Under the pieces are notes generated by a model. That model was given only the letters and a program-made list of their open reading frames with translations, was not told the DNA's origin and did not search any database. Shown here one piece after another: positions 13,509-59,762 of a stretch of DNA of 64,000 bases (its first letter is position 1; every line of letters begins with the position of its first letter). The translations under genes were made by a program, and so were the position numbers. Source of the stretch: Botryllus schlosseri (Eukaryota); NCBI GenBank assembly GCA_051294905.1, contig CM119371.1, positions 20,648,001 to 20,712,000 of the forward strand, written 5' to 3'.

Positions 13509-13897
13509 TCTTTGAATATCTTCGCAATTACTTGTGCTCTTAATATAGTTCAGTACTGCATTCTCAAAAGATTAGCAGAAGATTACAACTTTCCATATCA
13601 CAGAGGATCGCAATATAATATATTACACAGTCATGGAAGGTAGAATTTGCTATATTGGGCTGAATTATAGGTAGATTTATTTCAATACGTTCCTGGTCAA
13701 TTCCATGTGTAATTTTACGAGTAGGTCAAAACCAAGTGAATTGGACTTGAAGTAGACTCGAAGTAGTATGTGAAGTAGTCTTGAGAAGTATTCAAGTATT
13801 ACGATCAGGAATATACATGCTAGAGACTAGCAAAGAATGACTAAAATCAATTCATGTCAATTTCGCTGCCAAATATTGTGATGCTGGTCATATACAC

Positions 13898-14281
13898 CAG
13901 TGGTTTCCAACGTTTTTCTACTCATCGCCCTCCTTCAATCTCGAGACAAGTTTTAACCCCTCTCTATCTACGTATCCCGAAAATAGGACATACAAACGGG
14001 AAATTTATGAACTCAACTCTGATCGCTAGTGAATTTACTAAAAAACGGTCATTTTCCCGAGGTGCATGTGCTCGGAAAACCGGCTTCCGCATCTGCTATC
14101 CGTTGAGTTGACCTATTTTTGCATCATAATCAGAATGAGCCGCCTTCGCGAGATTTTTTAGGCCTTGTTTTTCAATATATCCCACTCGACGTCCTAGCAT
14201 TGTCGCCCCAATCGCCCCTACGTCACCCCCTTTGGTATTTTCACCCCTGGTTCTCAATATCGCCCACGTTGGGAACCACTG
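13898..14281. mobile_element. hAT MITE
   Basis: TIRs CAGTGGTTTCCAAC / GTTGGGAACCACTG; perfect TSD ATATACAC. Confidence 0.9.
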
Positions 14282-17200: not shown

Positions 17201-17773
17201 TCAAAGAAATAAAAACAAATAGCTTCCAACAAAGGACCGAAGAAAAGCAATGAAATCGGAGAAGGTTAGTAGTTCAGGCATCCCCAATCATGTGTCGGGA
17301 ACCTTTTTTGATACAAATAAGTCAAGATTGACCCCGTACGCCTGCTAGATTTTTTGCATCAGACAACGGTATCAATTTCATTGTTTGGTTGAATAAGTAT
17401 CATTCGCTGACTAATACATGTACTGTATTTCGCTCTTGATGTTGTGTGATTGCGGGTCAAGCTCACAGCAGAGAGTCACTAAATATTCACAAACGGAAAG
17501 CTGGATATTTCGAGCAAACGCTTGTAACAAAACAAGTAAAATTTTTGAGATTGTCAAGATGCATGCTCGTTTAGTGTTCATATTGTTTATGCTGCCATGG
17601 CCATTCATTGAGTGGCCTGCAGTTGAAATGAAGGAAATTTCAACCAAATATGTTAAAATGACGTGAAAATTATAATACATGAAAAATATTCACAGTGCAG
17701 AACCCAAGGTTCGTTTGTGAACGTGAACCTCTAAATTTCTCAGGTTCACTCACAGAACGCGAACGTGAACCTC

Positions 17774-19327
17774 ACGTTCACACCATCCCTAGTAATTAAT
17801 CATTGAGTGATCAATATCAATTCAGACTACATAGTGGCCCAATATATTCAAACTTAGTTTTAATGTATCAAGATTTCCAACTTGTTGAATGGATTTGGGG
17901 TCACATTGTTGCTTGTGTTGTTACGAGTACAAATACAACGGCGCCTAGAAGTAAGGAACCTTTAAAAATTGCCCGAAACCTGAAATGGTACCGTTAAAAT
18001 TGATAGATCTAGCACGGGAGTTGCCAACCTTTTCAGCTAAAGGCCACACGATATTTACGAACCACTGCGTGGAAAACTTGACCGTTGATGACTTTTTGTA
18101 ATCGTCCGATAAAGCGAACCAAATTAGGTAACGTTGAAAACAATACTCTATTATTATACACATTAAAAGTAATAACGTATATGTTGATGTCGTGAATGGG
18201 CCAAGCACGAAATTTAAATCAAAGTTAATGAATGAATTCGATCCATAATAATATTTCTTAAATATATTGCTGGCCGCCTCATTATAACACTGTACTGTAA
18301 TCATTGTGCAAGGACAGGATTATTGGACGCTAAGAAATATCAATAAGGAAGATTTCGGCAAACCTTTGTCTATCATTTTCTACAATGATTTCATCCGTGA
18401 CGATCTTACTTACTGCGAGCACACACATGAATTTGCATGTTGGGAGACAAGTTCTCTAGTTGTGAGTATAGTTAGACTCAATTCAGTAAATTATACGTAT
18501 TTTAAATTTTCAGGGGACTCCAATACTAAAAGCGAGGAATAGGGTGGCAATAATTGCGCGAAATTATAAGAAACATTTCAAGTCGAATAAATCTGCTGCA
18601 AAATATTCTACGTTATGGGCTATTGGTCATATTCGAACATCTACGAAAACTGTGGTTGGCCCCTTGCTACGCCAATGCGTCGGAACTGATGTTTCAGTTG
18701 TCAGCATCCGAAATTTCGAGATCAGGGTAATCAAATTTGGGTAGGCCTTGCAATTTTATCTGGGTAATTATTTGTTTTGATGCTATAACTGTAATTTCGA
18801 GAATGACCTCGCGGGCCAGACAAAACGATCTCGCGGGGTAAAGGTTGGCCGCCCCTGATATAACATGATGTTATTGTGGTAATTCGTTGAGATCATCTAC
18901 TGTCCTATTTTGCTCACTGCATGTGTCAAACTCGTAACCGAAAATATCAGCGCATATCAGTACATACCCTTAATCCTTTGTGAGGAAATATGCAATCTGC
19001 TATCTTTGAAGGTGGGATGGAAGCACTAACCGAGTGTATAATCAAAATCAGATTTTACTGAAGAAAAAATATCAATTTTTTCGCACAATCACTATATGAA
19101 CTATATCGATGCCCAAATATCCTTATAATTACTGAAAGAAAGGTCTTCAACCCCAAATTACATTTAAAAAGTAATCATCATCCATCTAAAACAGTGTTTT
19201 CCAACGTGGGCGAATTTGAGAACAGGGGGTGAAAATATCAAATGGGGTGCGACTGGGGGGGCGATACGGAAAGAAAATATTGGAACTTCTAGTGAGATTT
19301 ATTTATTCAACACGGCCAAAATGCGCG
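17774..19327 (+). repeat. Duplicated segment A, copy 1 (copy 2 at 50302-51869)
   Basis: Colinear near-identity from CACGTTCACACCATCCCTAGTAATTAA to AAAATGCGCG, including a shared hAT MITE (18015-18857). Confidence 0.9.
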
Positions 19328-22007: not shown

Positions 22008-23069
22008 CTACTGTCGGTATTTCATTTTCGTATGGGCGGAATAGTGTCTTATAAGGGTAGACTTTTTCGTGAAGCCCATTCCGCATATCTCGCACTCATA
22101 TTCATTTGTTTTCAGGTGTACCATCTCCATGTGTGATTTAATGTACGATCTCAAACGATATGCTTTACCGCAAATTTCACACCTATGTTCCTTCACACCG
22201 GTGTGAACCGAATAGTGGGCTTTGAGTAGGTAATGATTACTGAAACATTTTCCGCAGACATGACACACAAAATCTTTCGCGCCAGTGTGGGTCAAATGAT
22301 GTTTTTTCAAATCGACCTTTGCTGCGAAATATTTCCCGCAGATATGGCAATAGTAATCCTTCGTCCCGGCGTGATTCAAACAATGACGTTCAAGGTGAGC
22401 ATTTTGTCGAAAACGTCTTCCGCATATATGGCACTCATGATTTTTGGCTAGTGCATGAATCAACGAGTGTGTTTTCAAATTACCCTTTAAAACGAAACCT
22501 CTCCCGCATATCGAACATATGTGACTTTTTACACCGGTGTGAATCACATAATGGTGGTTCAATTGATATTTTCGTCTGAAACCTTTCCCGCATACATCAC
22601 ACTCGTAATCCGTTGATCCGACATGCGTAAAATAATGTGCTATCAAATACCCCTTTGCTATGAAACCTTTACCACATATATCGCACTTGAACTCTGTAAA
22701 TCTGCCATGACGCTTCATGTGGTTTTTCATCCCGTATATAGTGGTGAATCGTTTCGCGCATACATCACACTCGAACTCCTTCAATCCGAGGTGAATTTTC
22801 ACGTGTCTTTTCAAATTTGATTTCGATATAAATAGCTTCCCACATATCTTGCACTCGTGGTTTTTCATTTCCTTGTGGCATGAATAATGAGATAATTGGG
22901 CAGAACTTCTCACAAATCTTTTTCCGCATATGTCACACTCAAACTCTTTAACTCCGGTGTGAATTTTCATATGGACTCTCATGTAAGACTTGCTCTTGAT
23001 GCATTTCCCACAGACCTCACTAACATTGCCATTGCATCCTTGACGATGCTGAAAATGGGGCTCCATCAT
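22008..23069 (-). CDS. Tandem C2H2 zinc-finger protein (11 complete fingers plus a degenerate first finger)
   Basis: 353-aa ORF of CxxCx12Hx3-4H repeats; first finger reads SEVC (first Cys lost); paralog of 12615-13508. Confidence 0.92.
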   Translation of the reverse strand: MMEPHFQHRQGCNGNVSEVCGKCIKSKSYMRVHMKIHTGVKEFECDICGKRFVRSSAQLSHYSCHKEMKNHECKICGKLFISKSNLKRHVKIHLGLKEFECDVCAKRFTTIYGMKNHMKRHGRFTEFKCDICGKGFIAKGYLIAHYFTHVGSTDYECDVCGKGFRRKYQLNHHYVIHTGVKSHICSICGRGFVLKGNLKTHSLIHALAKNHECHICGRRFRQNAHLERHCLNHAGTKDYYCHICGKYFAAKVDLKKHHLTHTGAKDFVCHVCGKCFSNHYLLKAHYSVHTGVKEHRCEICGKAYRLRSYIKSHMEMVHLKTNEYECEICGMGFTKKSTLIRHYSAHTKMKYRQ

Positions 23070-23854
23070 TTTTAACTTGGTAGGAATACTTTTTCGAACG
23101 GACGCTCATGCGATTCAATGCTGAACCTCTCCTTCAATGTACACAACTAATATCGCGAATAATATGGTTTTATACTGCGTGTTAAAATCTAAAAAAAATA
23201 ACTGCATGGAATGCGGCACTTCTAGTCTCAGAATATTACTGCCTTGCACAAAACATGACCAGAACAGGTTACAATAGTCATGACGTCATACAGAGTCTAA
23301 CATCGCTTGTTCAGCATAGCATGCACATCTTCTCGCGTGAAAGATGCGGATTTATTTAAATGCTATCTTCAACTTGGGGACATCACAAGTAAGTGAACTT
23401 CTAAAAGGTGCGAAACGAAAGTGGAAGTAATCTATCAACGGGGCTATCCGAGGGCTGTTTACTCGAAGCATTGCAAGCGCCGCGAAAGAGTTGGCTGCGT
23501 AAGAGGGGCATTGCTGCGTATTGTATCAAATACAGTCGCCAGGATTCGATTACCAACGCCTAGCTAGTATATAAATTCACGTATACTTCGTTCGTATCAG
23601 TATGTATTGGATGATGTCACATAAAACAGAGCGATGTAATACTACGCAGTGTTGTGGTGTTTTGACTTGATTAAAATAGTAATAAGCTGATACTGATACT
23701 GACGTAATAAACACAAAGTTATTGAATAGTTACGAAGTCGTCTGAGTATATTTGCTACCAGATTGTCGTTTGATAAGCTTTTTGGCGCTGTGCAAGACCT
23801 CTAACCGCCATAACAAAACATAGGACCATTTGGAGAATGTACACTGTAGAGGAC

Positions 23855-26487: not shown

Positions 26488-28160
26488 CAATACACATGTT
26501 GATAAGACGAGATGACACGCGTAAATTTATAATCAGGTTGCACCTCTCCAGGAAAATAGTGAAACGCATGTGCAAGCAGTAAAGAGCTGCAATCAAAGAC
26601 TCGAATATCCGTATTATCGCCATATGTCTGAACGTGCAAACGATAGCTGGTTACTAATCCTCACTGACACAGTCAAAATTACATTATATTCGTAGGTACG
26701 ATGGAATCGCTACACTAGTAAAGTGTTACATAATGAACAGACCGTGAATTTCGTGCTTCAGCGCAAACTCGTGAAAATATGAATTAATAGCACATAGCAT
26801 GTGGCTAATTACTGATAAGTTTTCAAACTGCAACTGCGAATCGTCTCTGATACCGCATAGAAACTCTTGATATCAAAATACGAACAAATAAATCTTCTCA
26901 TGCCTCAATAATCATAGTAGTATAGTAATATAATATATACTACTAGCTCAACATCATTGTTGCTTATTGCGATGTTATATAAAAAAGGGATATATTCAAT
27001 ATGATACAAAATATATCTTTAGGATGATCATAAATGAAACCAAATTAACTTACAGTAAATCGTGGCTTGGTATAATACATGAAGCCTTATTTGGCATGTG
27101 GTGCTGACACACGTTCTTTGCGTCATGGTGACATGCTGCGTCTACATTTAAAATGCAACGATGGCGACATGCAAATCTCAACTTATGCATGGCAGAAAGA
27201 TCAATGCATAATTTGACGAGGCTGCTAATTTTCCCCGCATACAACGATAACGGCACATCCCCCTGATCACCCTATCAACTAAGTATTGTTAGAAGAGACC
27301 AATCATTTTGATAACAGTAGCTATCGGAATTTATAGCGTATTGAGACTGCGTAATCGTAGTCGGCAACACGTCAGTCTAGGGGCGATGTTAATGACTACA
27401 ATAATCGAATCTAATTGACGAATTATTGTAATCACGCTCGCAAATTACTTCTATTGTTGGTTGTAATATCATTTTTATCAAAGCTCCAGTGCGAGCCCAG
27501 TCTAGTCATTTAGGACAAAAAGCGAATTAATTCAAATTCAAAGTCTCTTACTCGTGGCTCATGCGAGTCCACCACACACTGATGAATATTAATTGCTTGA
27601 GTTTATATTTTTTACATTAGATAGCCTTCATTCATTTTTTGATATCGTCTCCTTTACTTGTGAGCAGCAATAATTTTCCATCGTGAATCATGAATGAATA
27701 TACAGTTCGTCCCAATGTCGTTTTGAGAGAGTGAAGAAACTTTTGTGGTATTTTAGCATCTCGTTGCTTTGGGATAGGTATGCGGATGTACGTGAATTTA
27801 CAAGCTTGCATGTAATCTGATTTACAAGGACAACATGTAGGGTTGTATGTAGGCCTACTAGGTAGGCTGTAAAATTACTGTGTCGGGCCTAAATGGACAA
27901 GAGAAAATGTAGATTTAATGTACCAGAGGTGACTGTAACATTACGGTCTGGCGTGTAAAGCTAGATTGCCGGGCGGGTGTCAGGTTAATTTACATTGAAA
28001 CACTGCCCAGTGTTATCCATCTACTAAAGCAGTGCTTTTCAACCTTTTTGAGCTCCATTCGCACTTTATTTGTGTGATAAATTTCATTCGCACAGGCTAA
28101 TCGAAAATTGTTATACACTAAGAAGATGAAGATACTTAACAACATTTTGTTCAGATGTTA
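26488..28160 (+). repeat. Duplicated segment B, copy 1 (copy 2 at 43878-49078, interrupted by insertions)
   Basis: Colinear near-identity starting CAATACACATGTTGA; contains the empty hATm target TTATCCAT at 28013-28020. Confidence 0.9.
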
Positions 28161-28902
28161 AACAAGTTGGCTTCTACGTAGATTAAGCTATCAAGTGTCT
28201 CATTAAAAAGGCAACTTTTTCGCTCGTTTTGATTTTGACTATATTACTAAAACCCTTCCCGGCCAAACAAGTTGTTTGGATTTGTACAAGAACGTCTACC
28301 AGTGCTTGGATGGCAGGTCTGAAAAACTGTTCTGCGATACTATACAAAACACAGCGTATTTTTCGCGAGCGAAAATGCTTGCTGGCAGAAATTGATTTTG
28401 AGAGGTGACGCAAAGGTCACGGAGGCTCCAGGTTGTCGAAAGGGTGAAAAGCCCATATGTTTGTGTTGAGGCTTTTGCTTTATGTCTTGGAACATAAGGT
28501 GCAAAACGACCAAGGAGAGTATAGGCACATTAGAGCTCGCTACCTTATGATACGTTGCTCCAACTTCTGTCTCGCGGGTATATGAACCTCATTATGCTGT
28601 GTGTTATGCTATTTATCTCAATCTAATTTGAGAATTCATATATCGGTTCAATGCCGGTAAAGTAGCTTTTAAACTTCCACCAAAATCTGGTTTTTTGTGG
28701 CATCGCGACCCGAGCCTTCCCAATAAAAACGAATTCATTTTTAATATTACAGTTGTTTGCTACGATTTTAAGGACACAATTCTACCCAACACCACAATTC
28801 TACCCAACACAGCTCTATACAAAACATGTCTGACGCACGCGATTTCAAATCAAGGCAAATTAAACTCATCTGCGTGCCATAGTTGTACTACTGCGTCTAT
28901 AC
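28030..28902 (-). mobile_element. Truncated copy of the CAGTGCTTTTCAACCT hAT family
   Basis: Reverse-complement match to ~55720-56627; continues ~35 bp beyond the nested MITE (29657-29692). Confidence 0.8.
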
Positions 28903-36110: not shown

Positions 36111-36735
36111 ATGGTGAGATCGCTACATTAGACTGCATCATAGAATATGTTTCGAAGTTTAATAGTGAACTATATGCCGATAGAGAAAAGTACCGGTAAT
36201 TAAAATTGTGTAATTTTGAACATGACGTTTTATTTTTCAGATTCATCAGACTGGTTAGCGATTTATTACTCTTGTGCTATTAAATATGAAAATGCTGATC
36301 ATCCATGGTAATATTAGAAAGGTGATCACAGTTGATCACCTATCTGAGATTTATGATGTTGTGAGATGTGCAGTTCGTAGTACCATCTAGGACAGAAAAT
36401 TCACTACGGAATATTACGACAAGTCGCTTGAATTGAACGGCGATTTCTATGAATTGTCTGCCAAAGATATGGGACAATATGACTGGTTTGACGATGGAAG
36501 TGAGTAATTCTATTCTATGCATGTCAACAGAATTATCGTCATAAAGCGATGATCATGGTAATCATACTGTACTAAAATTATCTTGTCTTGTTCGATATCT
36601 GTAATAAAAACGAATATAGATTTTTAGCCAAAATCACGCCGTGTTATGCAGGGCTTTAGAGCAGCCGCAAATTTAAACTGCTCCTGCTCTAGCTGCTGCT
36701 CCGGCTCTGAAATGATCGCATTGGCCTGTCTATAT

Positions 36736-41339: not shown

Positions 41340-43345
41340 AACTTCCGAACGTTAAGTACACTGCGGCTGTCTCGAAACTTTGTAACGTTGGGTAGACTTT
41401 GGCTGTTCGTAGTAAATTAATTTGAATAATTCACCAAGGACAGGTCAATATTTTTAGCCGTTATAATTCTTGTGTCATTGCATTAGGTACTCGGCGACTT
41501 TCACTGTGACAATTTGTAATAACTTAATTAATCGAGGACCGGTCAATGTTTCAAGCCGGTATATTAATTCTTGTTTCATTACATACGTTTCGAAACTTTC
41601 TAACGTTAGGTGTGGCTGACTGTGGCTGTTCATTGTAATTTAATTTGATTAATTTATTGAGGACGGGTCAATGATTTTAGCCGTTATTATAATTCTGGTT
41701 TCATTACATATGTCCAAAACTTCAAAACATTAGGTACTAGGCGGCTTACACTGTGGCTTTTTGTAGTAAATTAATTCATTGATGACGGGTCAATATTTTT
41801 AGCTGTTGTTGTAACAATTCTTCTTTCATTGTATAAATTCCAAAACTTCTTAACGTTAGGCTCTCTGCGGCTTACACTGTGGCTTTTTGTAGTAAATTAA
41901 TTAATTTATGAGGGGCCAATATTTTTAGCCGTTGTTGTAAGAATTTTTCTTTCATTGCATAAGTTCCAAAACTTCTTAACGTTAGGTACTCTGTGGCCTG
42001 CTCTGTGGCTTCTTGTAGTAAATTAATTCATTGATGACGGGCCAATGTTTTTAGCCGTTGTTGTAATAATTCTTCATTCATTGCATAAGTTTCAAAACTT
42101 CTTAACGTTAGGCACTCTGCGGCTTACACTGTGGCTTTTTGTAGTAAATTAATTCATTGATGACGGGCATATATTTTTAGCCATTGTTGGAATAATTCTG
42201 GTTTCATTACATATGTCCAAAACATTACGTACTATAGGCGGCTTTCACTGTGGCTTTTTGTAGTGAATTAATTCATTGATGACGGGTCAATATTTTTAGC
42301 TGTTGTTGTAATAATTCTTCATTCATTGCATAACTTCCAAAACTTCTTAATGTTAGGCACTCTTCGGCTCACACTGTGACTTTTTGTAGTAAATTAATTC
42401 ATTGATGACGGGCCAATATTTTTAGCCATTGTTGTATATAACTCTTCTTTCATTGCATAAGTTCCAAAACTTCTTAACGTTCGGTACTCTTCGACTTACA
42501 CTGTGGATGTTAGTAGTAAATTAATTGCGCCATGACATGTCAATATTTTTAGCCGTTATAGTAGGCTTCTGGTTTCATTACATATATCCAAAACTTCAAA
42601 ACATTAGGTACTAGGCGGCTTTCACTGTGGCTTTTTGTAGTAAATTAATTCATTGATGACGGGTCAATATTTTTAGCTGTTGTTGTAATAATTCTTCATT
42701 CATTGCATAAGTTCCAAAACTTCTTAACGTTAGGCACTCTGCGGCTTACACTGTGGCTTTTTGTAGTAAATTAATTCATTGATGACGGGCCAATATTTTT
42801 AGCCGTTGTTGTAATAATTCTTCATTCATTGCATAAGTTTCAAAACTTCTTAACGTTAGGCACTCTGCGGCTTACACTGTGGCTTTTTGTAGTAAATTAA
42901 TTCATTGATGACGGGCATATATTTTTAGCCATTGTTGGAATAATTCTGGTTTCATTACATATGTCCAAAACATTACGTACTATAGGCGGCTTTCACTGTG
43001 GCTTTTTGTAGTAAATTAATTCATTGATGACGGGTCAATATTTTTAGCTGTTGTTGTAATAATTCTTCATTCATTGCATAACTTCCAAAACTTCTTAATG
43101 TTAGGCACTCTGCGGCTCACACTGTGACTTTTTGTAGTAAATTAATTCATTGATGACGGGCCAATATTTTTAGCCATTGTTGTATATAACTCTTCTTTCA
43201 TTGCATAAGTTCCAAAACTTCTTAACGTTCGGTACTCTTCGACTTACACTGTGGCTGTTAGTAGTAAATTAATTGCGCCATGACATGTCAATATTTTTAG
43301 CCGTTATAGTAATTCTTATTTCATTACGTATTATCCGAAACTCTC
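41340..43345. repeat. Minisatellite, ~125-bp unit, about 16 copies
   Basis: Unit AAAACTTCTTAACGTTAGGCACTCTGCGGCTTACACTGTGGCTTTTTGTAGTAAATTAATTCATTGATGACGGG... recurs every ~125 bp and degenerates towards the left edge. Confidence 0.95.
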
Positions 43346-45721: not shown

Positions 45722-48700
45722 TAGGGTGGAGTGAAAATGACTTTTTTTTTCAAATCCAAAAAAGGCCTTCCTCAATCCTGACAAATGCCCTAAAACTTCA
45801 GGAAAAAGTGACTTCAGGGGATTACCCCAATTTTCCAGCCGGCAACCCCCCAATTTCTGTGCGTGGGGGGGGGGGGGTAAAATGGCCCATCTCGGCAACC
45901 GCTGGTCATAGAGTCATGATATATAGCTCAAAATCTGCGGAAACATCATGTTTCTATCTGTCTTAAGAGGAAAGTTTTCTCTATTGTGAACACAAAATGA
46001 GTTATAACCAAAAAACAATATATCAGCACATTTTTGTTGAAATTCAGCATTTATTTTGATGAATTCTGATCCGTCATCAGTTTTTTTGAAAAGAAAAGTA
46101 ATACACTGACATCTGACAATACCGAATATTGGGCCCATAACAAAAATATATTCACAACACAGTTTTTTTTTTTAAATCGGTTCCAAACATCATAACGAAA
46201 CATTCACAATTTCACATTTAACGACATATTAAAAATTCATTTTTGTTTCAAATTTTTTCATTAGTTTACGGGATTTGATTTTTTGGCGAATGAGGCCATC
46301 TCGTCTTTCAAATCCGGAGACTTGTGCTGACGCTTCTGTCACCAGCTTCACATGTCGTTCCACTATTTGGTTGTGACATGGATGAAGCAAAATCAGGGGC
46401 TTCTCGCGGCATTCTTCCAACTCTGCATCAGTCAAATGCTTAATCGCTGGAGGAAGTTGTTGATATGCTTCAATATTAACCAACTCGTGGTATGCCTTTG
46501 CTTCCAAGTTCAACTCAGGGACTTGGAATAAACGAATAGGACCGCAGATGGAACTGTTCTGACTTTCAATGTACATAAGTGAATTTTGTTCAGCGGCATG
46601 TTTTCGCATCGCAAGCACCTTGGTCACACCCTGATTTCGTATGTCTGCATTATCATCTGCCAGCATTGCAATCATAATATTTTCGGGGTGTGCGAAATAA
46701 CCGTTTCTTATCACGACATTCAAAGCAATTTTCCGAACGTTTTGGTCAGAGAAATTCAAAACCCGTTGAATCAAGTTGAAGAAGTTTCTGGATCCATGTG
46801 TTATATGTTTGTTTAGCTTGATCTCAAACCAAGTCGGGAAATATACTTCAAGGCAAAAACGAGCCAGAATCTGCAGGTTCAAAGACGGTTCATCAACTGT
46901 CACATAATACCGTAAAACTCTGCATCCCAAAGTTAGCCATCTTGAATGCACAACTGGTCCAACCTCCAAATAAGCGAGATCATCATCAACGTTTCCTTGA
47001 ATAATTGCCCAGCACATTTTATAAGCATATAACTGGTCCGTACTTAAGTCATTCACAACTTCGGGTGGGAGCTTTGGAAAGGCCAAAAGTGGTGGCGAGA
47101 GCTTTTTGAATTGAGTAACTGGCCAACAAGATAGACTTCCATGTAGTTTTTTTCCAATTGGACCGGCAAATGTATCTGGGCCACTTGTAACACCGTCGAG
47201 ACTTGCAAACACGTGCCGCAAAGGCAATTCATTAGCATGAAGCAGACATACTATCCATTGAAGTGGCTTATTCAGCAACTCTTCCAGGCTTCTAATGCAT
47301 CCATTATGTTTTCCTGTCATGGATGCAGTACCTTCTGTACCGACAACTGCCAGTTTATCTTGCAATTCCGTATCTTTTATTGCATTGAATAGATGCTGAG
47401 CTATGGTTATGCCCTTTCCATCTTCAGGAGAAAGGTGGGTGAGGTAATAACTCCCTGGCTCACCAACTACACTATAGTGTTCTTCCAATTGAAGAGATCT
47501 GTAGTACTTCTCGTTTGGACCGTGCATAACCATATGTGTGGCATCTTTACGACCATCAAAGTACACACCATCCACCATACTAAAGTTTTGTTGCTCTTCT
47601 TGCCGTAGTGCCTCTCTGCATCTGTCACGTTCTCTTCGTAACTTGCTTCGGTCAATCACCAATTTTTTATCATGATCGGTAACCAATCCAACATCTACCA
47701 AAACGCTGTTAGCAACTGCAGCTGCAGCTCGGTCCGATATTTGAAATCTTTCACACATTCTGGCAAGATTCGGCCATTTTTTTCGGTTCTGGGTTGGGAA
47801 TTCAGTTGATTGGGATGAAGAGCTGGAAATATTGGAAAGGTGACTGTGAATTGTGGAAGAATCTGTGCTTGTTGATTCAAACTCTGAGGCATGCCCAGCA
47901 TACAGATCGACCTCCATTTCACTTTGGGCTGCGGGTGCGGAAGTTCTGGTGTTCAGTTGTGATGTTAACTGGCGTGTAAACATTTGGTCGGATGAATCCA
48001 AAGGCACGATACTATCCAGACATCTTTCAGCACGTGGCCCCTTTTGATCATTGTAAAATTTCCAATCCTCCTCAGCCATTCGCAACTTATGCTGTTTTTC
48101 CAACTCTTTTCGTTGATCCTCATCTGTACAGAAGATGTCATACAATTCATCTACATTGGATAAAAAATTGCTTGCTTTTCCAAGTACGATTTAGTACGTT
48201 TGTTTTTTGGCCACCGGTCGAGTTTACTAAAATCTATGACCAGCGATTGAATCCTTCGGGTTATGGAACGTTGGTGCAAAGGATAAACATTGCAAAACAC
48301 CCATATGTCATAGATTTCTTTCGCAACTTCTGACGCAGTTTTTTGAGTGCGAAAGTTCTTAAAGTGGAGCATTCTCTCTATCACTTGCCGTTTTGTGGGC
48401 AGTAAACCAGGTGGAAACTTTTCACAACCAGTAAACTTTTCGCCACCATGCCAAATCTTGATATGTTCTCCACTTCGTCTAGTTCCCACCATAATTGTGA
48501 TCATAAATCCAATAAATCCTACGATAGGCTACTTTGTTAAGTATCTAGGTGTAGCGTAACAATCTGTAAAAACAAAACATGGCTTATTAAGAGTAAATAA
48601 CTGCACTGTGCAACGTCAAAATTTGGAAAAATGGCGATTTCACTGTTTTTTGGCTATAAATCGCTTTGTGTTCACTATAGAGAAAACTTTCCTCTTAAGA

Positions 48701-48933
48701 CAGATAGAAACATGATGTTTCCGCAGATTTTGAGCTATATATCATGACTCTCCGACCAGCGGTTGCCGAGATGGGCCATTTTACCCCCCCCACGCACAGA
48801 AATTGGGGGGTTGCTGGCTGGAAAATGGGGGTAATCCCCGGAAGTCACTTTTTCCTGAAGTTTTAGGGCATTTGTCAGGATTGAGGAAGGCCTTTTTTTG
48901 ATTTGAAAAAAAATTCATTTTCACTCCACCCTA
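45722..48933 (-). mobile_element. Full-length hAT (hATm-like) DNA transposon, 3212 bp
   Basis: Termini TAGGGTGGAGTGAAAATGA / TCATTTTCACTCCACCCTA; ~300-bp TIRs; perfect TSD TTATCCAT (45714-45721, 48934-48941); transposase inside. Confidence 0.93.
46229..48504 (-). CDS. hATm-like transposase (~758 aa if one frameshift is repaired)
   Basis: YFDGRKD (D1), VGTEGT (D2 position reads E), CLLH (CxxH), HSRW, PCHNQIVER (E); ORF 48151-48504 joins ORF 46229-48145 if one base is added to the A6 run at 48162-48167. Confidence 0.85.
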
Positions 48934-49112
48934 TTATCCATCTACTAAAGCAGTGCTTTTCAACCTTTTTTAGCTCCATTCGCACTTTATTTGTGAAATA
49001 AATTTCATTCGCACAAACTAATCGAAAATTGCTATACAAAAAGAAGATGAAGATACTTAACAACATTTTGTTCAGATGGTTCATTACATCGCGTTGTGTG
49101 TATTTTATATAG

Positions 49113-50265
49113 CAGTGGTTCTCAACCGCCGGTCCGCGGACCGGTGCCGGTCCGCGACGACATTCCTATCGGTCCGCGAGGTTTATTACAATTTTATACT
49201 TAAATTTCAAGATGCAATGTTGAAGGTTTGTCCTTTGATAAAATGAATAAAGCATGTAATTTTAAACTGATTCAAAACTTCGTGAGGTACCATTAGGGTT
49301 GGAAACATGTTCGATTTGACTTAAAGTTCAAGACGTTTCATTTGACGACATGCATGCGACAAATACAGAACAGATACGAGCTCACTCATCGCTAAACAGC
49401 GCAGTTTGATCATCGATTTTCGACTCGTTTATTTTGTGCAGGACCGTAACTGGGGCAACCCAAACCGCCCAATTGGAGAGGGGCCGAGCTTGAAAAGGGC
49501 CCACCATTATTTCGCAAATGAATATAAATCATAGCGTTTTATTTGAAACTTTTTCCAACATTTTTCTATTTCTTTTCGGGCATTGCACGATTTAGTGTCC
49601 CTAAATGTCTTGCTTATTAGGTGTCCTTCTCCGAGAAATACGAATAATTTATAGGCATTTCGGCGTCAGCCATTACCGCACCACGACGTATCCACCCATA
49701 ATGATGTTTAGGTTAACTTATGGGACTCCGAAATTTGGACTTACGAAGTGCTTTTTCGGTCCGGATTTGCGGATGGCCGGTATAGCTGCTGTCATGTGTT
49801 TTCTTGCGGCATGCATTTTATTCGTAGTTGCCAGAGTAGCCTGCGTCTGGTGGCAGTGGGCAATGAGCAAGGCAGCACGACAAGGTGCTTGGTTCGACTC
49901 CGATACGCTTCTTCTCTTGATACTGTCAAAGAGAAGAATATTATTGGAGTTGGCGTGGGCGTTTAAAACCACGGCCTTCGGCGCGAAAGACTGTAAACGA
50001 CTCTCGTCGGTAGCACGTTTATCTGAACAAGGCAAGTTTACCTCGACTCGGCAGACTCACTATCATAAAATCACGTGGAGGCCATCATGAATATAATTAA
50101 ATGTGATCAAAACCCTCCAAATGTCACTCTCTAGCATCATATAATTGCGAAAAACGGTTGCATACTGTACATTTTAGCTTCATTTCAATTTTGACAGTTC
50201 ACCGGTCCGCCAGACATATTTTGAAATTTTACCGGTCCGCGAGGCGAAAAGATTGAGAACCACTG
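49113..50265. mobile_element. Non-autonomous hAT element
   Basis: TIRs CAGTGGTTCTCAAC / ATTGAGAACCACTG; TSD TTATATAG / CTATATAG; CCGGTCCGC subterminal repeats. Confidence 0.85.
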
Positions 50266-51869
50266 CTATATAGCATTGTACATTGTGTGTCTGTCTTGGC
50301 ACACGTTCACACCATCCCTAGTAATTAACCATTGGGTGATCAATATCAATTCAAACTATATAGTGGCCCAATATTTTCAAACGTAGCTTTAATGCATCAA
50401 GATTTTCAACTTGTTGAATGGATTTGGAGTCTCATTGTTGCTTGTGTTGTTACGAGAACAAATCCAACGGCGCCTAGAAGTAAGGAAGCTTTAAAAAATG
50501 CCTGGAACCTGAGATGATACCGTTAACATTGAAAGATCTAGCACGGGAGTTGCCAACCTTTTCAGCTAAAGGACCACACGAGATTTACGAACCACTGCGT
50601 GGAAAACTTGACCGTTGATGACTTTTTGTAATCGTCCGATAAAGCGAACCAAATTAGGTAACGTTGAAAACAATACTGTATTACTATACACATTAAAAGT
50701 AATAACGTATATGTTGATGTCGTGAACGGGCCAAGCACGAAATTTAAATCAAATTTAATGAATGAATTCGATCAATAATAATATTTCTTAAATATATTGC
50801 TGGTCGCCTCATTATGACACTGTACTGTAATCATAGGGCAAGGACAGGATTATTGGACGCTAAGAAATATCAATAACGAAGATTTCGGCGAACCTTTGTC
50901 TACCATTTTCTACAATGATTTCATCCGTGACGATCTTACTTACTGCGAGCACACACATGAATTTGCATGTTGGGAGACAAGTTCTCTAGTTGTGAGTATA
51001 GTTAGACTCAATTCAGTAAATTATGCGTATTTTTAATTTTCAGGGGACTCCAATACTAAAAGCGAGGAATAGGGTGGCAATAATTGCGCGAAATGCCAAG
51101 AAACATTTCAAGTCCAATAAATATGCCTTAAAATATTCTATATTATGGTCAATTGGTCATATACGAACATCTACGAAAACTGTGGCTGGCCCCTTGCTAC
51201 GCCAATGCGTCGGAACTGATGTTTCAGTCGGTCCTCAACATCCGAAATTTCGATGTCAGTCTAATCAAATTTGGGTAGGCCTTGCAATTTTACCTGGGTA
51301 ATTAATTGTTTTGATGCAATTACTGTAATTTCGGGAATTACCTCGCGGCCCACACAAAACGTTCTCGCGGGGTAAGGGTTGGCCGCCGCTGATCTAGCAT
51401 GATGTTATTGTGGTAATTCGTTGAGATCATCTACTGTCCTATTTTGCTCCCTGCATGTAACCGAAAATATCTGCGCATATCTGTACATACCCCTAATCCC
51501 TTGTGAGGAAATGCGCAAGCTGCTATCTTCAAAGATCGGATGGAAGCACTAACCGTGTGCATAATCATAATCAAATTTTACTGAAGAAAAAATATCAATT
51601 TTTTTCGCACAATCACTATGTGAACTATAATGATGCCCAAATATCCCCATAATAACTGAAAGGAAGGTCTTCACCCCCAAGTTACATTTGAAAAGTTATC
51701 ATCATCCATCTAAAACAGTGTTTTCCAACGTGGGCGATATTGCCCTTTCGTGGGCGATTTTGAGAACAGCGGGTGAAAATACCAAATGGGGCGACTCGGG
51801 GGTGATACGGGAAGAAAATATTGGAACGTCCAGTGAGATTTATTTATTCAGCACGGACAAAAATGCGCG

Positions 51870-51995
51870 GCCAACAAGGCCGTACGGCGTTGTTACGCCG
51901 GTCGTCGAACGAAAGAAGAACACGCAGCGAATTGTAAACGCAACCGTCTTGGAGTCAGATATACAATTATACAACTACAAACATTCGCTCTGCGT
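51870..51995 (+). repeat. 5' LTR remnant
   Basis: Matches 59564-59673 of the 3' LTR (GCCAACAAGGCCG...ACATTCGCTCTGCGT). Confidence 0.85.
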
Positions 51996-54631
51996 CCCTC
52001 AATGTTATCCGTTGCCAAATATTGCATCGATGCGAACGCAAATGGCAGGGGCCAAAGTCTTTTCCACTCTTGATATAGCGAGCGCGTATCATAACATTGA
52101 AGTGGCGGAGTCAGACTGTCATTTGACCGCGTTTTATGCGAAAGAAATCGGTAAATTTCAGTACAATGTGTGTCCCTTCGGTTTCCGGTCCAGTGGAGAT
52201 CAATGGTGTAAATTGGCTTACGAGTTGCTTGGTGACATTCCTAACACTTTTCTGTATTGTGATGATATTGTTGTAGCAACACCGGACGAGAAGTCGCATT
52301 TGGAGACGTTGCGGGTAATTTTTGAGAAATTGAAGAGTGAGTCCCTTTCGTTGTCTACTGAGAAGTGTAAGTTCGGAGCAGAGTCAGTTCGATTTTTGGG
52401 GTTTTTGATTGACAAGGATGGCATCAGACCAGATCCCAGACGAGTTGAGGCGATTGTGAAGTTTCCAGTGCCAAAGACTATTCGCGAGGTGAGGCGTAGG
52501 ATCGGCATGGATAGTTATTATTCGAGAAACATCAAGAATTGCTCAGCGATTATGCAGCCGCTCTGCGATTTATTGAAAGGAACAAGTGCTCGAAGTAAGC
52601 TTAAATGGTCCAATGCGGCGCCGAAGGCATTTGAGCAGATCAAGACAGCTTTGGTAGAGACAGTGAGCTTGGCTTTTCCGACATTTCATGGGCCTATGCA
52701 GCTTGTGACGGACGCGAGTCAGGTTGCAGTGGGTGCGGTTATCAACGAGTACCAGAACGGCAGGTATGTGCCCCTGGCTTTCTTCAGCAAGAGTTTAACT
52801 GCGTCTCAGCGAAAGTGGTCAGCGGTGAAGAGAGAGACGTATGCTGTATTCATGGCTCTGCAGCAGTTTCGAGATTTTTGCATGGGCAGGTCAGTGAGTT
52901 TGGTCACAGACTGTCAGGTGTTGGCCAAGATGATTATCAACCCAAAGGAGTGTGCTGATCCAGCCATGTTTCGGTTTCTTGAATACATTAATTACTTTGT
53001 AAATAAATCTACATGTATTCGCGGTATTTTCAATTCTGTTTCCGATTGTTTGTCTCGTGTCGAGATTAATGAATTTGTTGTGTCAGAGGGCTTGAAACCT
53101 GATTTTATAAAGCGTATTGCAGTGGCACAGAGGCAAGATAAGGAATTGGCAGAATTTCGTGAGCGTACTTTGAGTGAGACTGGTTTGAAGTTGAGAGAGT
53201 TGAAGTTGGTCGGGTGTGAGATGGGCGTGATTTGTCACGTCCCAGATGTAAGCTCTAAATCACAGAAGTCGTCTGTAATTCCAAGAGTGTGGGTTCCACG
53301 TCATATGAGGCGTGAGTTGTTTGAACATGTGCATTCGTTGTCGCATCCCGGTATTCGTGCGACGTTGGCATTCGCTAAACGACTTTACGTGTTCCCTGAC
53401 ATGGATCGTTGGTTACGAGAATCTGTGCGGGCGTGTCCGATGTGTAGCAAAAGCAAAATAATTCGTCATGTGCGTTCCGCTTTAAAACATGTGCCGCGCC
53501 GTAGTGACGGTAATGCCGACATTTCAATTGACATCGCTGGTCCGCTTCGTGAAACAGAGGATGGTAATCGATATTTTCTTATCATTGTTGATCGTGTCAC
53601 AAATTATACTAATGCAGTCCCCATGAAAAGACAAGATACCGACACGGTTATCCGTGCTTTGATTGATGGTTTTGTAAAGGATCGTGGAGCACCTATGGTT
53701 ATAAGGTCAGACCGGGGCTCAGTGTTTACTTCGTATGAATGGGAAAAGTTCATGTCGGTCCTTGAATGTACACATTCATTTTCGTTGGCACTTTCACCAC
53801 AGCAGAATTCGATCTCCGAGACGGGGATTCGACGAATCAAACGCGGTTTGCGGTGCGCTAATAATCCTGCGGCATGGGATCGGTTATTACTTTTTGTGAT
53901 TTTGTCATTGAATGCCTCGGTGCGCGAGGGGTATGATTATTCCGCGGCGGAAATGACGTATGGGGAAAATGTGCGGTTACCTGGAACCTATTTTGAATAT
54001 GACCCGAATATGTTCAAGAATAGTCAAGCAGAGGTGCTTTGTGATGTGCGCGAATTTTTCGAAAACTTGAATTTCAATAAGTCCAACATCCGGACAAATG
54101 TCAATGCATATGTACCGCCGGATCTCATGGTTTGTTCACATGTTTATGTAAAAAACGAGAGGGGTAAAAAGACCTCTTTTGATTTCTGGTATGTGGGTCC
54201 TTACAAGGTAATCGAAAGATCGAAATCGGGGAAGTCCTTCACTTTGTTGGTTAAGGGGAAAGAGAAAATCGTGTCGATTGACAGACTGAAAGTGTGTTAC
54301 TTTCCGCCATTTGATGTAGATAACGACGCGTTCGATGATTTCGTTCAGCAATTTCCGCCTGTTGATGTGGACAAATCGGTACTAAACTCCGCGGATAATC
54401 TGGTTGACGCAGGTGTAATTTTGTCCGGTGGTGATGACAGCGAGAGCGACTGTCCGGGTAGTGTTAGTGAGCGTGTATCTGATTGCTTACCTGTTGATGT
54501 TGATCGCGTAATTCGTAGGCGTGAATCCCGCCGCATGAGCGATAATGCTAAGACCCAAATATCTCGTGATTGCAGAAATATAACCGAGTCAAGTCCAAGA
54601 TATACGTCCAGAGGGAGACGATTCATTAGAC
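51996..54631 (+). CDS. pol: Gypsy pol: RT, RNase H, integrase (5'-truncated; true C-terminus at 56636-56661)
   Basis: YPLPNI, FSTLDIASAYH, PFGFRSS, YCDD, FLGF; TDASQVAVGAV, PLAFFSKSL, SDCLSR; HSLSHPG..CPMC, ISIDIAGP, RSDRGSVF, ISE; GPYKVI; no stop in ~880 codons. Confidence 0.95.
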
Positions 54632-56627
54632 CAGTGCTTTTCAACCTGTGTGACGGTTCGCACTGGTGCGAATGAAAAAAAGTTCAGTGCGAATGACCAA
54701 GGTAGTGCGAATAGTGCGAATGAAAATCTGGATCAAGTGCGAATGAAAATCGTGATTAATTGTTAACTTTTTTAACGTGGAATAATTCGAATAAACGTAA
54801 TCGAATATGTAAGATCAGTGTAACAGTTGCAGTTGCGACGCAATTGTAAAAACTTAATACGACCCACGACTAATCGTAGCTCTCATAAGCCGCAGTGAAT
54901 TAATATTCATGCACTATAATTATTACGTAACCAAAAGCCGGGTCTGGTAGCTGGTGTCGTGGCAGTATAGAGATCTCTACCATCTCTATAGTGGCAGACA
55001 TACAGTATATCAGCCCGTCTCATCCTGCGACAGGCTGGAAAAATGAAATTCAAATTGACTTTCTGCTTTCTTTCGCTAAACAATCATCATATTTTCGTAA
55101 TAACTGTTCGATTAGCGCGAGGCACGAGGATAGTAGTAAATCCTATCATTGCAGACTCACATTTGCAAGTTACTGTAACAACGCAAATATAACCCTTCAA
55201 GGGTTATTAAAGTATGGACCGCAAAGGGTATAATTTTGGGTCGACACGGTACCAGAGCTATCTGTTATATGTATGTAAAATTTATTGAATTTATTGCAAA
55301 AAATCCTGCGCTCGTTTTTACATATCCAAGATCACTTTGTTGGGTACTGCAGCCAATAAGCGAGACAAGCAATAAATATGGCTTTATCATGAGAATTCAT
55401 GATAAGATTTGTCTGACTGTTTTTTCTTGAAAACATGGTCGAAGACCGTTGAGATGAAATAGTGTATGGGTGTGCAACGAGCGAGATCAGGCCTATGAGA
55501 CTCATCCATTTCGAGGCCAACCCCTTTTGCGTCGGGGCACATGACGATGTAAAGTTTTTGCGAACAAACCGCTGATAAAATGCGGCGCCAAAAACATAAG
55601 CGGCGACAAAACCTCGGTCTAAAAATGACCCATGCTGGATGGCGAAACCTTTCGAGATGGATTGGATATGATGCTCCGTTGTCGGCACGGAAAGTCCCGT
55701 TCTTGCAATCTGAATAGACAGTAGTACAACCGCGATACGCGGAGGAATTTAATTCGCCCTAATTTAGAATAGCGTGCGTCATACATGTTTTGTAGAGCTG
55801 TGTTGGGTAGAATTGTGGTGTGCGCGTTCTGTATGTCATACATGCCCGTAAAATCGTAGCATACAACTGTAACATTAAAAATAAATTCCTTTTTTATGGG
55901 TGAGGCTCGGGTCGCAAGATGCCACAAAAACCCAGATTTTGGTGGTAGTCTAAAAGCTGCTTTACCGGTATTAAACTGTCATGAATTCTCAAGTCAGATA
56001 GAGTAGATAGAGTATAGTAGAACACAAAGTGTCGTGAGTTATTTGCTTTTTTCATTAACTTGCGAGACAGAAGTTGGAGCAACGTATCATCAGATAGCGA
56101 GCGCTAATGTGCCTGCTCTCCTTGATCGTTTTACACCCTATGTTTCATAGGCATAAGGCAAAATCCTCAACACAAACGTGTGTGCTTTTCATTCTTTCGA
56201 CAAACTACAAACTGGAGCCTCGCGGGACCTTCGTGTCAGCTCTCATAAACGATTTCTGCCAACAAGCATTTTTCACTCGCGAAAAATACGCTATATTTTG
56301 GATAGTAGTGCAAAACAGATTTTAAGACCTGGCCATCCAAGCACTAGTAGACGTCCTTGTGCAAATTCCCAACAACATTGTTTGGCCGAGAAGGCTTTAA
56401 GTGAAATAATTGAAAGCAAAACGAGCAAAAAAAGCTGCCTTTTTAATGAGACACTTGATAGCTTAAGCTACATAGTAGCCAATTTTGATGCACATCTGAA
56501 CGACATATTGTTAAGTAGGCCTATCTTCATCTTCGTTTTGTATAACAATTTTCGACTAGTTTGTGCGAATGAAATTTATTTTACAAAAAAAAGTGCGAAC
56601 GGAGCTCAAAAAGGTTGAAAAGCACTG
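54632..56627. mobile_element. 1996-bp non-autonomous hAT inserted in the last codons of pol
   Basis: TIR CAGTGCTTTTCAACCT / AGGTTGAAAAGCACTG; perfect TSD CATTAGAC (54624-54631, 56628-56635); GTGCGAATGA subterminal repeats. Confidence 0.95.
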
Positions 56628-56683
56628 CATTAGACCAAGACATTTGAAAGACTTTGTCTGAATAACTGCGCGTTCAAGAAAAG

Positions 56684-58584
56684 ATGTGGGTGACGTTGTT
56701 TACGCTGTTTACATTGGCGTTGTATCTAAATGCAGGTTTGCTGCCTCCTCTTCCTCCCGTGATAAAAGGGAAGGTGTGTTTGCCTAAACTCGCTGCAGAC
56801 GTATATGATATCACTAGTGTTAAATGCAAACATCATCCGGTTGAAAATATTCGCCACTGTGCGAGTGGAGTGTATCATCAAAATCGTCATAAGACCAAGC
56901 TTAATGCAGTTGCATGTCATGTTATGTTGATTGAAACTGAGACTTTTCGTTATGTGTTCGGGTCCACGGAGGCAACTTGTCAGTCTCGCGTGGGACCGCC
57001 CATTTCTGCATGTGATTGCGCCGCATATGTGAAAAATGGGGACGGTAAATTCGGTCCGTTGATTGCTATCAGCCCTCTGTTGTTGCGTACGAACAACACG
57101 GCTAGGTACAGTTATGCGTACTTGCGGACGTGTCAAACTACCGCGACAAATGTTTTCGTGATAAAAACCGGTATAATGTATGATCATGAAAAGGATGTTT
57201 TTTCTTCGCCTTTATCTTTTACTAACGGATGTCGCGTAACGCAAGGTTCATGTGAAACGGAAACGTATACGTTTGTATGGGATACGAATGAAAGACTAGT
57301 GTGTCCTAACCTTGAAATAGAGTCTAATACCTCAATGATAATGTATTTAGACGGGGACAAGAAAGTAACTCGGATCCAACTCCCTTTCTTGGGCATGTCC
57401 TTTCACGAGTGGTACGAATGTGGTAAAGTAGATTCGGATTGTTTTAGGAATCATGATTTGATTTGCACGTATAATGGTTTGGTGTTCAAAAATGTTAAAT
57501 GCACTGACTATGATGTTAGTGATGTGTTGGCTAGGAATATGACCCATCCTAGGATAGGGGGCGTTTTGTCGGCGATATTGCAAGACATGGAGGATAGGGC
57601 TGCCGCCAATATTAAAGGCACGCAGAGTGCGTTGAATGAAATTCATTGTCAGATGGAAAAGATTGTGGCGTCAAATTTGAGAATTTTAGCGAATTCCCAC
57701 CCTAGTGCCGTGTTGTCCACTATGATGAATCGTCCCGTTCGGGCGATCAAAGTTGGCGATGCGTTCGTGGTCATGCACTGTACGGACGTAAATGCGACTT
57801 TGTTGGAAAGTTTAGTATATGAAGGGGTTGTGTCAGCTAGACCTCTGGTTATGTTTACGGACTACGAGGGAAAAAATAGAATTAGTCAGATATATTACGG
57901 CGATACAATCCAGAAGGGAATCCATGATGTAGATACCACAAATCCCAAACGTAATTCACACTTGGTAGAGTTGTTCAAAATTAATGGGATGTTCTTTAAA
58001 TTCTACAACAATTCGTTGATATCGGTAAATGTAACTGTGCGCCGGCTTGTTACAAATATTCACGATATTGAAGTCCCGCATGAAGAGGTAGACTATTTGG
58101 CTGTCATGACTGAGTTGTTTGCGGGCGAGGATGTTGAAGCCGGTGCCGACGTTGAATCGGTAATGTTTAAAACCACATCTGACTTCGTTAGGCATGCTCG
58201 GGCAGTGCGTCGTCTGGCCAGGGACGTAACTGGTTCGGTGGTGGTTAGCGAGGGGTCGTTTCGGTATTGGGAAAAATTGGTAGTTGGTTCAAGAATTCCT
58301 TTCTGGGGGTGCTGGGAATGATTACTGGTCCCGCGGGTCGGGTTATTTCAGTAATGGTGGTGGCCTTCGTAGTAATTGTTGCTTGTGGAGTATGTGGGAA
58401 GTTTGCACGGTACGGGGTGAGACGCTCTAAGAAATTGCGGATGTCGCGCGCGAATCGGGAGGATATAAATGATCGAATTAAAATTAGGAAATTGTTGCAA
58501 AGATATAGAGATAAAAGGGAAGCCGAAATTAATACAGATGTTACTTCTGGGGGTAAAGTAGTAGAAGTAAATGACAGTGAATAG
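56684..58584 (+). CDS. env: Envelope glycoprotein, class III (gB-like) fusogen; one frameshift before the transmembrane helix (~633 aa repaired)
   Basis: Signal peptide MWVTLFTLFTLALYLNAG; Cys-rich ectodomain; six N-x-S/T sequons; gB-like segments HCQ...HPSAVLSTMMNRPVRAIKVGDAFVVMHC and SARPLVMF; TM VISVMVVAFVVIVACGV and basic tail in ORF 58267-58584. Confidence 0.85.
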
Positions 58585-59220
58585 CATGTTCTGTGGGTTT
58601 TGATGCATGATTATCGATATATATGGTTCGGACCTTGCGTACACGTTGATGGCATTCGTCAGTGCACATAGACTTTGTTTTTCTGTCTATGAATTGTATT
58701 GTCGTTACTTTAGTTGCTGATCTTTATTATTCATTTTCATTATTTTGTGGTTTTGCATGTACTTTTGTGCTGTTGATATTTTAGTTCTGCATTTGTGTTT
58801 AATGATGATATGTTATTGCAAGCAATGAGATCGTGATTGTCTCTATGGTATCGCTTTTGGGCTAATGATTATGTTCTTTTATTGTATTGATGATATCATG
58901 TTATTACTGCATGCGAAGTGACCTTTATTGTCGCTGATCGTACCGCTTTTGTGCTAGTTAATGTATTTTATTTCTTTAGTTGGATTTGAACGCTAATGGC
59001 GTAATGGTGTGTTTTAGTGTCATCCCGAGATGGTTATGTGAAATAGGGTTTCCGAATGCCACGCTTGGATGGTATTTCGTTTCATTAGTTTACTTTTACC
59101 CCTGCATATAAAATCTTTTCCTGTCTCCAGTCCATATGATTAGCCCCAGTCCATATGTTGTATGACCCTAGGTTTGAGATATTGACCAATATACTCGTTT
59201 TTTTTACACCAAGTTATTTT

Positions 59221-59235
59221 GGTGGGAAGGGGGAA
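59221..59235 (+). promoter_or_regulatory. Polypurine tract
   Basis: GGTGGGAAGGGGGAA just upstream of the 3' LTR. Confidence 0.75.
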
Positions 59236-59237
59236 CT

Positions 59238-59762
59238 TTTAACGGAGTATATTGGTATAACGCCATTTTAATAATATTCGATAAGGAGTTGGTAAACCTT
59301 ACGTAATTCCTTGAACTGAAACCCGATAACACCTTTGTGAGTCGTACATTTTGTCGTGTGAACGTAGATAACGATTTGGCATGTACTCTCTCGTGGCCAT
59401 GAGAGACATTCATTCAATTCATGATTTTTCGCTGATTCGGAAGTCCGTTTCTTTGTCGTACGTAATTTCAATAAAGTTACAAGTCGTGGAGACGGAAACA
59501 AAATATATTCGTCAGTGTGATTCATCGAATACGTGTGAAATAGAGAGGCATCGTGGTACGTCAGCCAACAAGGCCGGTCCGTCGAACGAAAGAAGAAACA
59601 CGCAGCGAATTGTAAACGCAACCTTCTTGGAGTCAGATATACAAATATACAACTACAAACATTCGCTCTGCGTTAAAGTGTTGACCCCGACGTTCGATCT
59701 CTGCGTGACTGCTGGAGCGTGATGCATATGTGGAAATTCCAATACATTACAGCTCCGTTATA
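59238..59762 (+). repeat. 3' LTR (~525 bp)
   Basis: Follows the PPT; inverted termini TTTAACGGAG / CTCCGTTATA (degenerate TGTAACGGAG / CTCCGTTACA); AATAAA at 59470; internal match to 51870-51995. Confidence 0.75.

Follow-up and report, generated by a model that had tools for sequence, protein, structure and literature searches.

The 64,000-nt stretch of DNA analysed here (the window) holds what appears to be a decayed Ty3/gypsy element, from a family with an env gene of the gB type, and its pol would have been hit in its last codons by a Buster-like non-autonomous hAT element; this explanation, taken as a whole, has a probability of about 0.8. Its main components are almost certain: the boundaries of the insert with their target duplication, the existence of insert-free copies, the order pol, spacer, env, UTR, polypurine tract (PPT) and LTR, the class III fold of Env, and the presence of further lesions in the same copy. 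The features that compose the locus are listed below, with their coordinates in the window, their strand and the evidence on which they were placed.

51870..51995, + strand: fragment (3' part) of the upstream LTR, joined straight to mid-RT; from LTR identity
51996..54631, + strand: surviving pol, with RT, RNase H, integrase (H2C2, core, GPY/F) and a long acidic tail; from Pfam and the GPY motif at 54196
54624..54631, no strand: left copy of the 8-bp target-site duplication (TSD), CATTAGAC; exact repeat of the right copy
54632..56627, no strand: non-autonomous hAT-type insertion of 1,996 bp; from its terminal inverted repeats (TIRs), GTGCGAA subterminal repeats and very high copy
54632..54675, + strand: read-through codons of the pol frame in the hAT end, outside pol proper; read from the sequence
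56628..56635, no strand: right copy of the 8-bp TSD, CATTAGAC; exact repeat of the left copy
56636..56661, + strand: last codons of pol and its stop TGA (56659-56661), severed by the insertion; from the tail motif of relatives and insert-free copies
56662..56683, + strand: pol-env spacer of 22 nt, with an env-frame stop at 56663-56665 and ending in AG; read from the sequence
56684..58321, + strand: env main frame, 545 aa, with a hydrophobic N-terminus and a gB-type class III ectodomain, and no membrane anchor in frame
58249..58584, + strand: membrane anchor and cytoplasmic tail of Env, in another frame; from a hydropathy of 2.86
58585..59220, + strand: T-rich 3' UTR; from the sequence and a depth at the level of pol
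59221..59234, + strand: PPT; read from the sequence
59235..59679, + strand: downstream LTR of ~445 bp; bounds inferred from the PPT, the terminal inverted repeat and the primer site
59679..59690, + strand: tRNA-Trp-like primer-binding site (PBS), 11/12 match, directly after the downstream LTR; from the motif of the Clavelina element (PMC13524379)

Data and Scope

Copies of both elements elsewhere were examined through the contigs or reads of four of the 24 listed public runs, namely X1, X5, X6 and X23, with a match threshold of 85% for depth; the joints and loose ends cited from them are examples among those listed, and not counts.

The Inserted Element

The sequence-only reading had claimed a hAT insertion at 54632, and this is borne out: the insert carries perfect TIRs of 16 bp, its GTGCGAA repeats are clustered in subterminal position, the target copies on its two sides are identical, and its copies are dispersed. 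A chance origin of this signature is of no concern because an exact 8-bp repeat flanks a perfect 16-bp TIR at both ends, and because the same two ends are joined to many unrelated flanks in the contigs; the 8-mer CATTAGAC itself occurs a third time in the window, at 36126. Unrelated flanks were found before 54632 in 82 contigs of X1 and behind 56627 in 94 contigs of X6, with a flank agreement of 0.41-0.42, and the depth of the insert was 31 times that of pol in X1 and 48 times in X6, both of which are DNA-like runs. Within the window, partial copies lie at 28030-28900 (80% identity) and 48951-49078 (87%).

Regarding its classification, the 8-bp TSD, the short TIRs, the size below 4 kb and the dispersed copies with differing flanks are those of the hAT superfamily, for whose non-autonomous members TIRs of 5-27 bp and lengths below 4 kb are given (PMC3517528). 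The target of the insert has TA at positions 4-5, in agreement with nnnTAnnn, the target consensus of the Buster family (PMC3517528), and the same dinucleotide is found at these positions in nine of the ten listed flanks of CAGTG-type ends (two of which have an identical flank sequence), against a background TA frequency of 0.07. The insert is like the non-autonomous hAT elements of the Buster family (PMC3517528) in its 8-bp TSD with TA at 4-5, its 16-bp TIR, its length under 4 kb and its high copy; it is unlike them, and unlike a MITE, in that 2 kb is long for a MITE and no trace of a transposase was seen, the seven internal ORFs scanned giving no Pfam match. As non-autonomous hAT-type elements go, the insert is ordinary and, judged by target preference alone, it may be termed Buster-like.

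The Interrupted Pol

As for the gene that received the insertion, Pfam matches above cut-off were obtained for RVT_1, RT_RNaseH_2, RT_RNaseH, Integrase_H2C2 and rve; the order RT-RNase H-integrase, the gypsy-type domains and the GPY/F module are those of Ty3/gypsy elements (Metaviridae). The ORF that spans this region (51634-54675) takes its final 14 residues from the terminal inverted repeat of the hAT element, so that its apparent ending is read-through into the insert, as had been proposed from the letters.

The earlier description of the true ending as a typical Gypsy integrase tail holds as well. Of the 120 listed pol relatives (233 were found), 54 carry a motif of the form T/S-x-GR...P-x-x-hydrophobic in their final 45 residues, as opposed to 15 of 2,400 control windows, and these relatives stop 0-11 residues after it; here, the first half of such a motif runs up to the left target copy, while the second half, together with the stop, sits just right of the insert. 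The TGA at 56659-56661 is where pol had been predicted to end once the element and one target copy are removed. Measured from GPY to the break, the tail amounts to 145 codons; the whole tails of 111 relatives have a median of 93, and only two are longer.

The sequence-only reading also entailed that uninterrupted copies of the family read across this site, and contigs from X5 and X6 do cross it with no insert. A joint in X6 (depth 111) connects 54620 with 56630 through five intervening letters, the number to be expected if there is one target copy. A contig from X5 passes the left target copy into letters like those after the right copy, with a match of 14/17 that is the best place on the + strand of the window. 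Finally, an X6 contig of 972 nt aligns with 56633-56941, through the stop, the spacer and the start of env, at ~87% identity and with no continuation into the hAT end, its first 664 letters lying outside the view. Compared with the window, the insert-free natural copies show a few substitutions.

The Pol-Env Junction and the 3' End

The env ATG (56684-56686) stands 22 nt after the pol stop, at the distance that had been claimed, and two findings agree with the accompanying claim that env is part of the retroelement: env is followed by the 3' UTR, the PPT and an LTR that matches the fragment before pol, and the 972-nt contig from X6 runs from 56633 via the spacer into env. The LTR set consists of one whole LTR, with the PPT before it and the PBS after it, and of an upstream LTR of only ~125 nt, of which 51897-51995 is 96% identical to 59573-59673 over 101 columns. 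For the Trp-like primer motif, 0.19 chance occurrences are expected per window, and the evidence is its position, not its presence; there were no Rfam or tRNA matches in the 64,000 nt.

Other Lesions of the Copy

The copy is a multiply broken relic, dead beyond the hAT insertion, and a decayed rather than an intact member of an errantivirus-type family. The sequence-only reading overlooked its other lesions, namely the loss of gag, protease and most of the 5' LTR, and an env anchor that is out of frame. On the 5' side of pol, a repeat that ends at 51869 is joined to the ~125 nt of LTR, in turn joined to mid-RT, and this copy lacks the primer-binding site and the RT start in addition to gag and protease. 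The predicted env is also broken, with its membrane anchor in another frame. Intact errantiviruses have gag, pol and env with no large truncation; this copy has a 5' truncation, an insertion in pol and an env anchor out of frame. The divergence of the LTRs was rejected as a basis for dating, since only 101 columns overlap, with two substitutions and two gaps.

As for the other members of the family, most of them have probably lost env. The ratio of pol depth to env depth was 7.1 in X1, 4.6 in X5 and 9.6 in X6, and that of the 3' UTR to env was 7.3, 9.4 and 7.6, respectively, bearing in mind that contig depth is not copy number and that env could also fall short of the 85% match threshold through divergence. 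The UTR should not be better conserved than the gene, yet it is deeper than env, and therefore env-less derivatives are the simplest reading. None of the joints listed skips env. Env-defective derivatives are known to arise in gypsy, ZAM and Idefix of Drosophila (PMC12992720).

Routes to the Expression of Env

It is very probable, from the arrangement of frames, that neither read-through nor a frameshift at the pol stop could make Env: env lies in another frame, an env-frame stop occurs one base after the pol stop, and the gene has its own ATG and a hydrophobic leader. If there is no read-through, env has to be translated from a subgenomic mRNA of its own. Left of the insert, ATG occurs for the last time at 54545, and none is present in 54546-54631 or in 56628-56683; hence, any mRNA with its 5' end downstream of 54545 makes the AUG of env the first one.

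The RNA run X23 (raw, bulk) was read to ~6%, and 659 reads were placed, 653 of them only in part. Of the six env bins, five had a depth of zero and one a depth of 0.9; with env barely covered, there was no pile-up of starts and no splice joint among the joints listed. X23 lends support to no route of env expression. X5 was not counted as expression evidence, its nature as RNA being only guessed and its depth profile being like that of the DNA runs.

The route that we favour, tentatively and at slightly less than even odds, is an internal promoter: the env mRNA would start in the long pol tail, by analogy with Tor3b and Tor4b of Oikopleura. A TATA-like hexamer, ATATAA, is present in the tail at 54578, and it is a weak hint because one per 330 nt is expected by chance (an estimate). 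The insertion separates the pol tail from env, which would be of no consequence in a dead copy.

Cis-splicing from the LTR or leader to an acceptor in the pol tail or in the spacer, as in Drosophila errantiviruses and Tor3a, is possible, if rather doubtful. It is the usual route to env (PMC12992720; for Tor3a, PMC4402516), and AGs with no ATG downstream are available as acceptors, for instance those at 54575 (TTGCAG) and 56683. However, the AG just before the env ATG lacks a strong pyrimidine tract, as had been remarked before, with 44% pyrimidines in the 16 nt upstream, and the 21 AGs listed for the two sides of the insert reach 56% at most. Furthermore, env has its own ATG, whereas the main env exons of Drosophila are joined to upstream exons (PMC12992720); X23 gave no splice joint for it at its scant coverage, and this copy lacks the donor region.

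Trans-splicing of a host spliced leader (SL) to the AG that abuts the env ATG, as for the downstream gene of a tunicate operon, is unlikely. The 22-nt spacer is near the intercistronic length of 23-30 nt in Oikopleura, and SL trans-splicing, which uses unpaired acceptors, is common in Ciona (PMC1488885); there is also a precedent in an LTR element, the RNA of Cer1 from C. elegans being trans-spliced to SL1 (PMC3315495). Against this route, the acceptor context is A-rich, 5' RACE of Tor3b and Tor4b env in Oikopleura found no splicing (PMC4402516), and no SL-like loose end was seen at 56683 among the X23 ends listed, where there is almost no coverage. The literature search, within the parts of the sources that it covered, returned no description of SL trans-splicing for env. 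A bolder form of the idea, for an ascidian host, has pol-env treated as a tunicate operon, with the SL placed onto an unpaired AG to yield a capped env mRNA and with neither an internal promoter nor an LTR donor, and an env-bearing minority that supplies the envelope in trans to an env-less subfamily 5-10-fold larger; this too is improbable.

That Env is made from the genomic RNA, by read-through or by termination-reinitiation after pol, is very unlikely: the pol stop and the env start are just 22 nt apart, but env is in a different frame with its own stop at 56663-56665, the TGGGA core (the TURBS motif of caliciviruses) is absent from the stretches scanned on either side of the insert, PF00606 (the gB domain) was found in none of 60 longer pol relatives, which is weak evidence, and gypsy elements have few Pol ribosomes, which counts against reinitiation. 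Routes of any other kind are given just as slight a chance.

The Env Protein and Its Origin

The match of env to the Pfam family Glycoprotein_B is sub-threshold (E 2.8e-6), and a word-indexed homolog search with Env found nothing; a full HMMER scan instead gave 110 relatives at E<=0.001, the best 55 of which are 21-31% identical. Glycoprotein_B is matched by 26 of the 54 aligned members of the Env family, and a PDB search with the profile of the relatives gives herpesvirus gB (E 4e-22). The alignment-based model of Env has a pLDDT of 83 and a pTM of 0.57, as opposed to a pLDDT of 32 for the single-sequence fold, and the best Foldseek matches of the model are herpesvirus gB structures (E ~1e-21, TM ~0.5). 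An atlas search gave a Monjiviricetes fusion cluster at 0.92, a lead only, given its low recognition (1350). As modelled, Env is a class III fusogen of the herpesvirus gB type.

Ten cysteines of Env, counted by eye, are spaced 19/34/71/7/17/39/7/8/12; in this comparison of spacing, they agree by eye with the published rows of the C3 configuration and are unlike those nematode and flatworm rows with which they were compared. The likeness makes an ascidian host probable. No furin site (R-x-K/R-R) occurs in the main frame, and such sites are not always conserved in errantivirus Envs (PMC13524379). A late hydrophobic segment is present in 23 of 30 full-length Env relatives, and the out-of-frame anchor segment is weakly matched (E 0.024) by the 584-position profile of the relatives, at its positions 526-575. 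Single-protein scans of viral and metagenome contigs yielded no loci of relatives.

It is barely credible that the glycoprotein gene came from an unrelated virus (chuvirus- or herpesvirus-like) and lies between pol and the LTR by chance: RNA-virus glycoproteins do appear among the structural matches and env depth is far below that of pol, but the gene has a 22-nt spacer and shares the UTR, PPT and LTR, the X6 contig that leads from the end of pol into env at ~87% identity points to further pol-env-LTR loci, and the cysteine spacing matches that of published ascidian errantivirus Envs (PMC13524379).

Comparison with Known Systems

Both elements are of known kinds, and nested insertions are routine; the pol-env junction is unsurprising too, the arrangement having already been published for ascidians. 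Elements with gag, pol and a gB-type env, and with cysteines in configuration C3, were described in Ascidiacea (Clavelina, Ascidia and Aplidium) by Chary and Hayashi (eLife 2026, PMC13524379). The window element, with an env-like fusogen ORF of the gB type (the alternative being the F type) adjoining pol, is an errantivirus in their operational sense, as a decayed copy.

The likeness to the ascidian HSV/gB-type errantiviruses includes a Ty3/gypsy pol followed by a gB-type env (PMC13524379). For Clep_errantivirus_1, the Env cysteines are spaced 19/34/72/7/17/38/7/7/12, to be compared by eye with the series given above for the window, and its primer site is Trp-like, as here (PMC13524379). Unlike these elements, the window copy has neither gag nor protease, its pol is interrupted and its env frame is broken; unlike the published C3 Envs, its Env has extra cysteines at 99, 110 and 150.

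As regards the expression of env, the main text of PMC13524379 makes no mention of splicing, an internal promoter or readthrough, and does not address it. In Oikopleura, Henriet et al. (2015, PMC4402516) placed the TSS of env, in five cases, within pol (Tor3b) or the spacer (Tor4b), and reported splicing in two Tor3a elements. Tor3a, Tor3b and Tor4b are likewise tunicate gypsy elements with env after pol (PMC4402516); however, the Oikopleura (appendicularian) elements are listed with an F-type env (PMC13524379) while the window env is of the gB type, and Tor elements serve as an analogy and not as kin. Gypsy, ZAM and Idefix of Drosophila share the gag-pol-env plan, but have an F-type env, made from a spliced RNA that unites the main exon with one lying upstream (PMC12992720).

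The route to the env mRNA in gB-type errantiviruses is the one point of some value here; the short spacer and the lack of an upstream ATG narrow the expected location of the 5' end of this mRNA. Env-less copies may dominate the family, a trait to be compared with the loss-of-infectivity pattern of Drosophila. In conclusion, the window adds one divergent family of the gB type, whose best Env relatives are 21-31% identical, to those published for ascidians.

Envelope depth and the long terminal repeats

As for the retroelement, the decayed Ty3/gypsy copy with a gB-type env, the depth over env was 5-10 times below that over pol and the 3' UTR (window 52154-59078) in the three aligned sequencing runs, X1, X5 and X6, where depth is that of the contig and not a copy number; because of this low env depth, it is probable that an env-less subfamily makes up the majority of the copies of the retroelement.

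Regarding the LTRs, the upstream one is a fragment (51870-51995) flanked by two sharp junctions: at the first, a hAT-like repeat is truncated at 51869 and abuts the LTR interior, and at the second, the LTR breaks off a few bases short of its end and abuts mid-RT. The downstream LTR (window 59221-59690, with its flanks) has a polypurine tract on its 5' side and a Trp-like primer site directly 3', the arrangement expected of an LTR that two tandem copies had in common before the second was lost. The two ends of this LTR are inverted repeats of each other and do not read TG...CA.

Other elements in the window

The element at 45722-48933 is bounded by long terminal inverted repeats of ~275 bp with 95-97% complementarity, which enclose a minus-strand frame of 653 aa (46229-48190). 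The Pfam scan of this frame gave nothing above the cut-off, and its atlas matches were clusters without names, for the most part from arthropods, at 0.97. This element probably belongs to a DNA transposon family absent from Pfam.

CAGTG-ended hAT-type elements are numerous, and some are nested within others (28903 inside 28030; 49113 inside 48951). Their positions are listed with the remaining repeats and coding fragments.

Repeats and coding fragments of the window
990, 10613, 13898-14281, 28030, 28903, 33266, 48951, 49113-50265, 62663: CAGTG-ended hAT-type elements
12615-13571, minus: C2H2 zinc-finger array, 84-nt periodicity
22008-23105, minus: C2H2 zinc-finger array, 84-nt periodicity, Pfam-confirmed
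17773-19327 and 50302-51869: dispersed repeat of 1.55 kb, two copies, 91% identity
29606-30217: separate reverse-transcriptase fragment, Pfam RVT_1
41466-43320: tandem array, period ~126 nt
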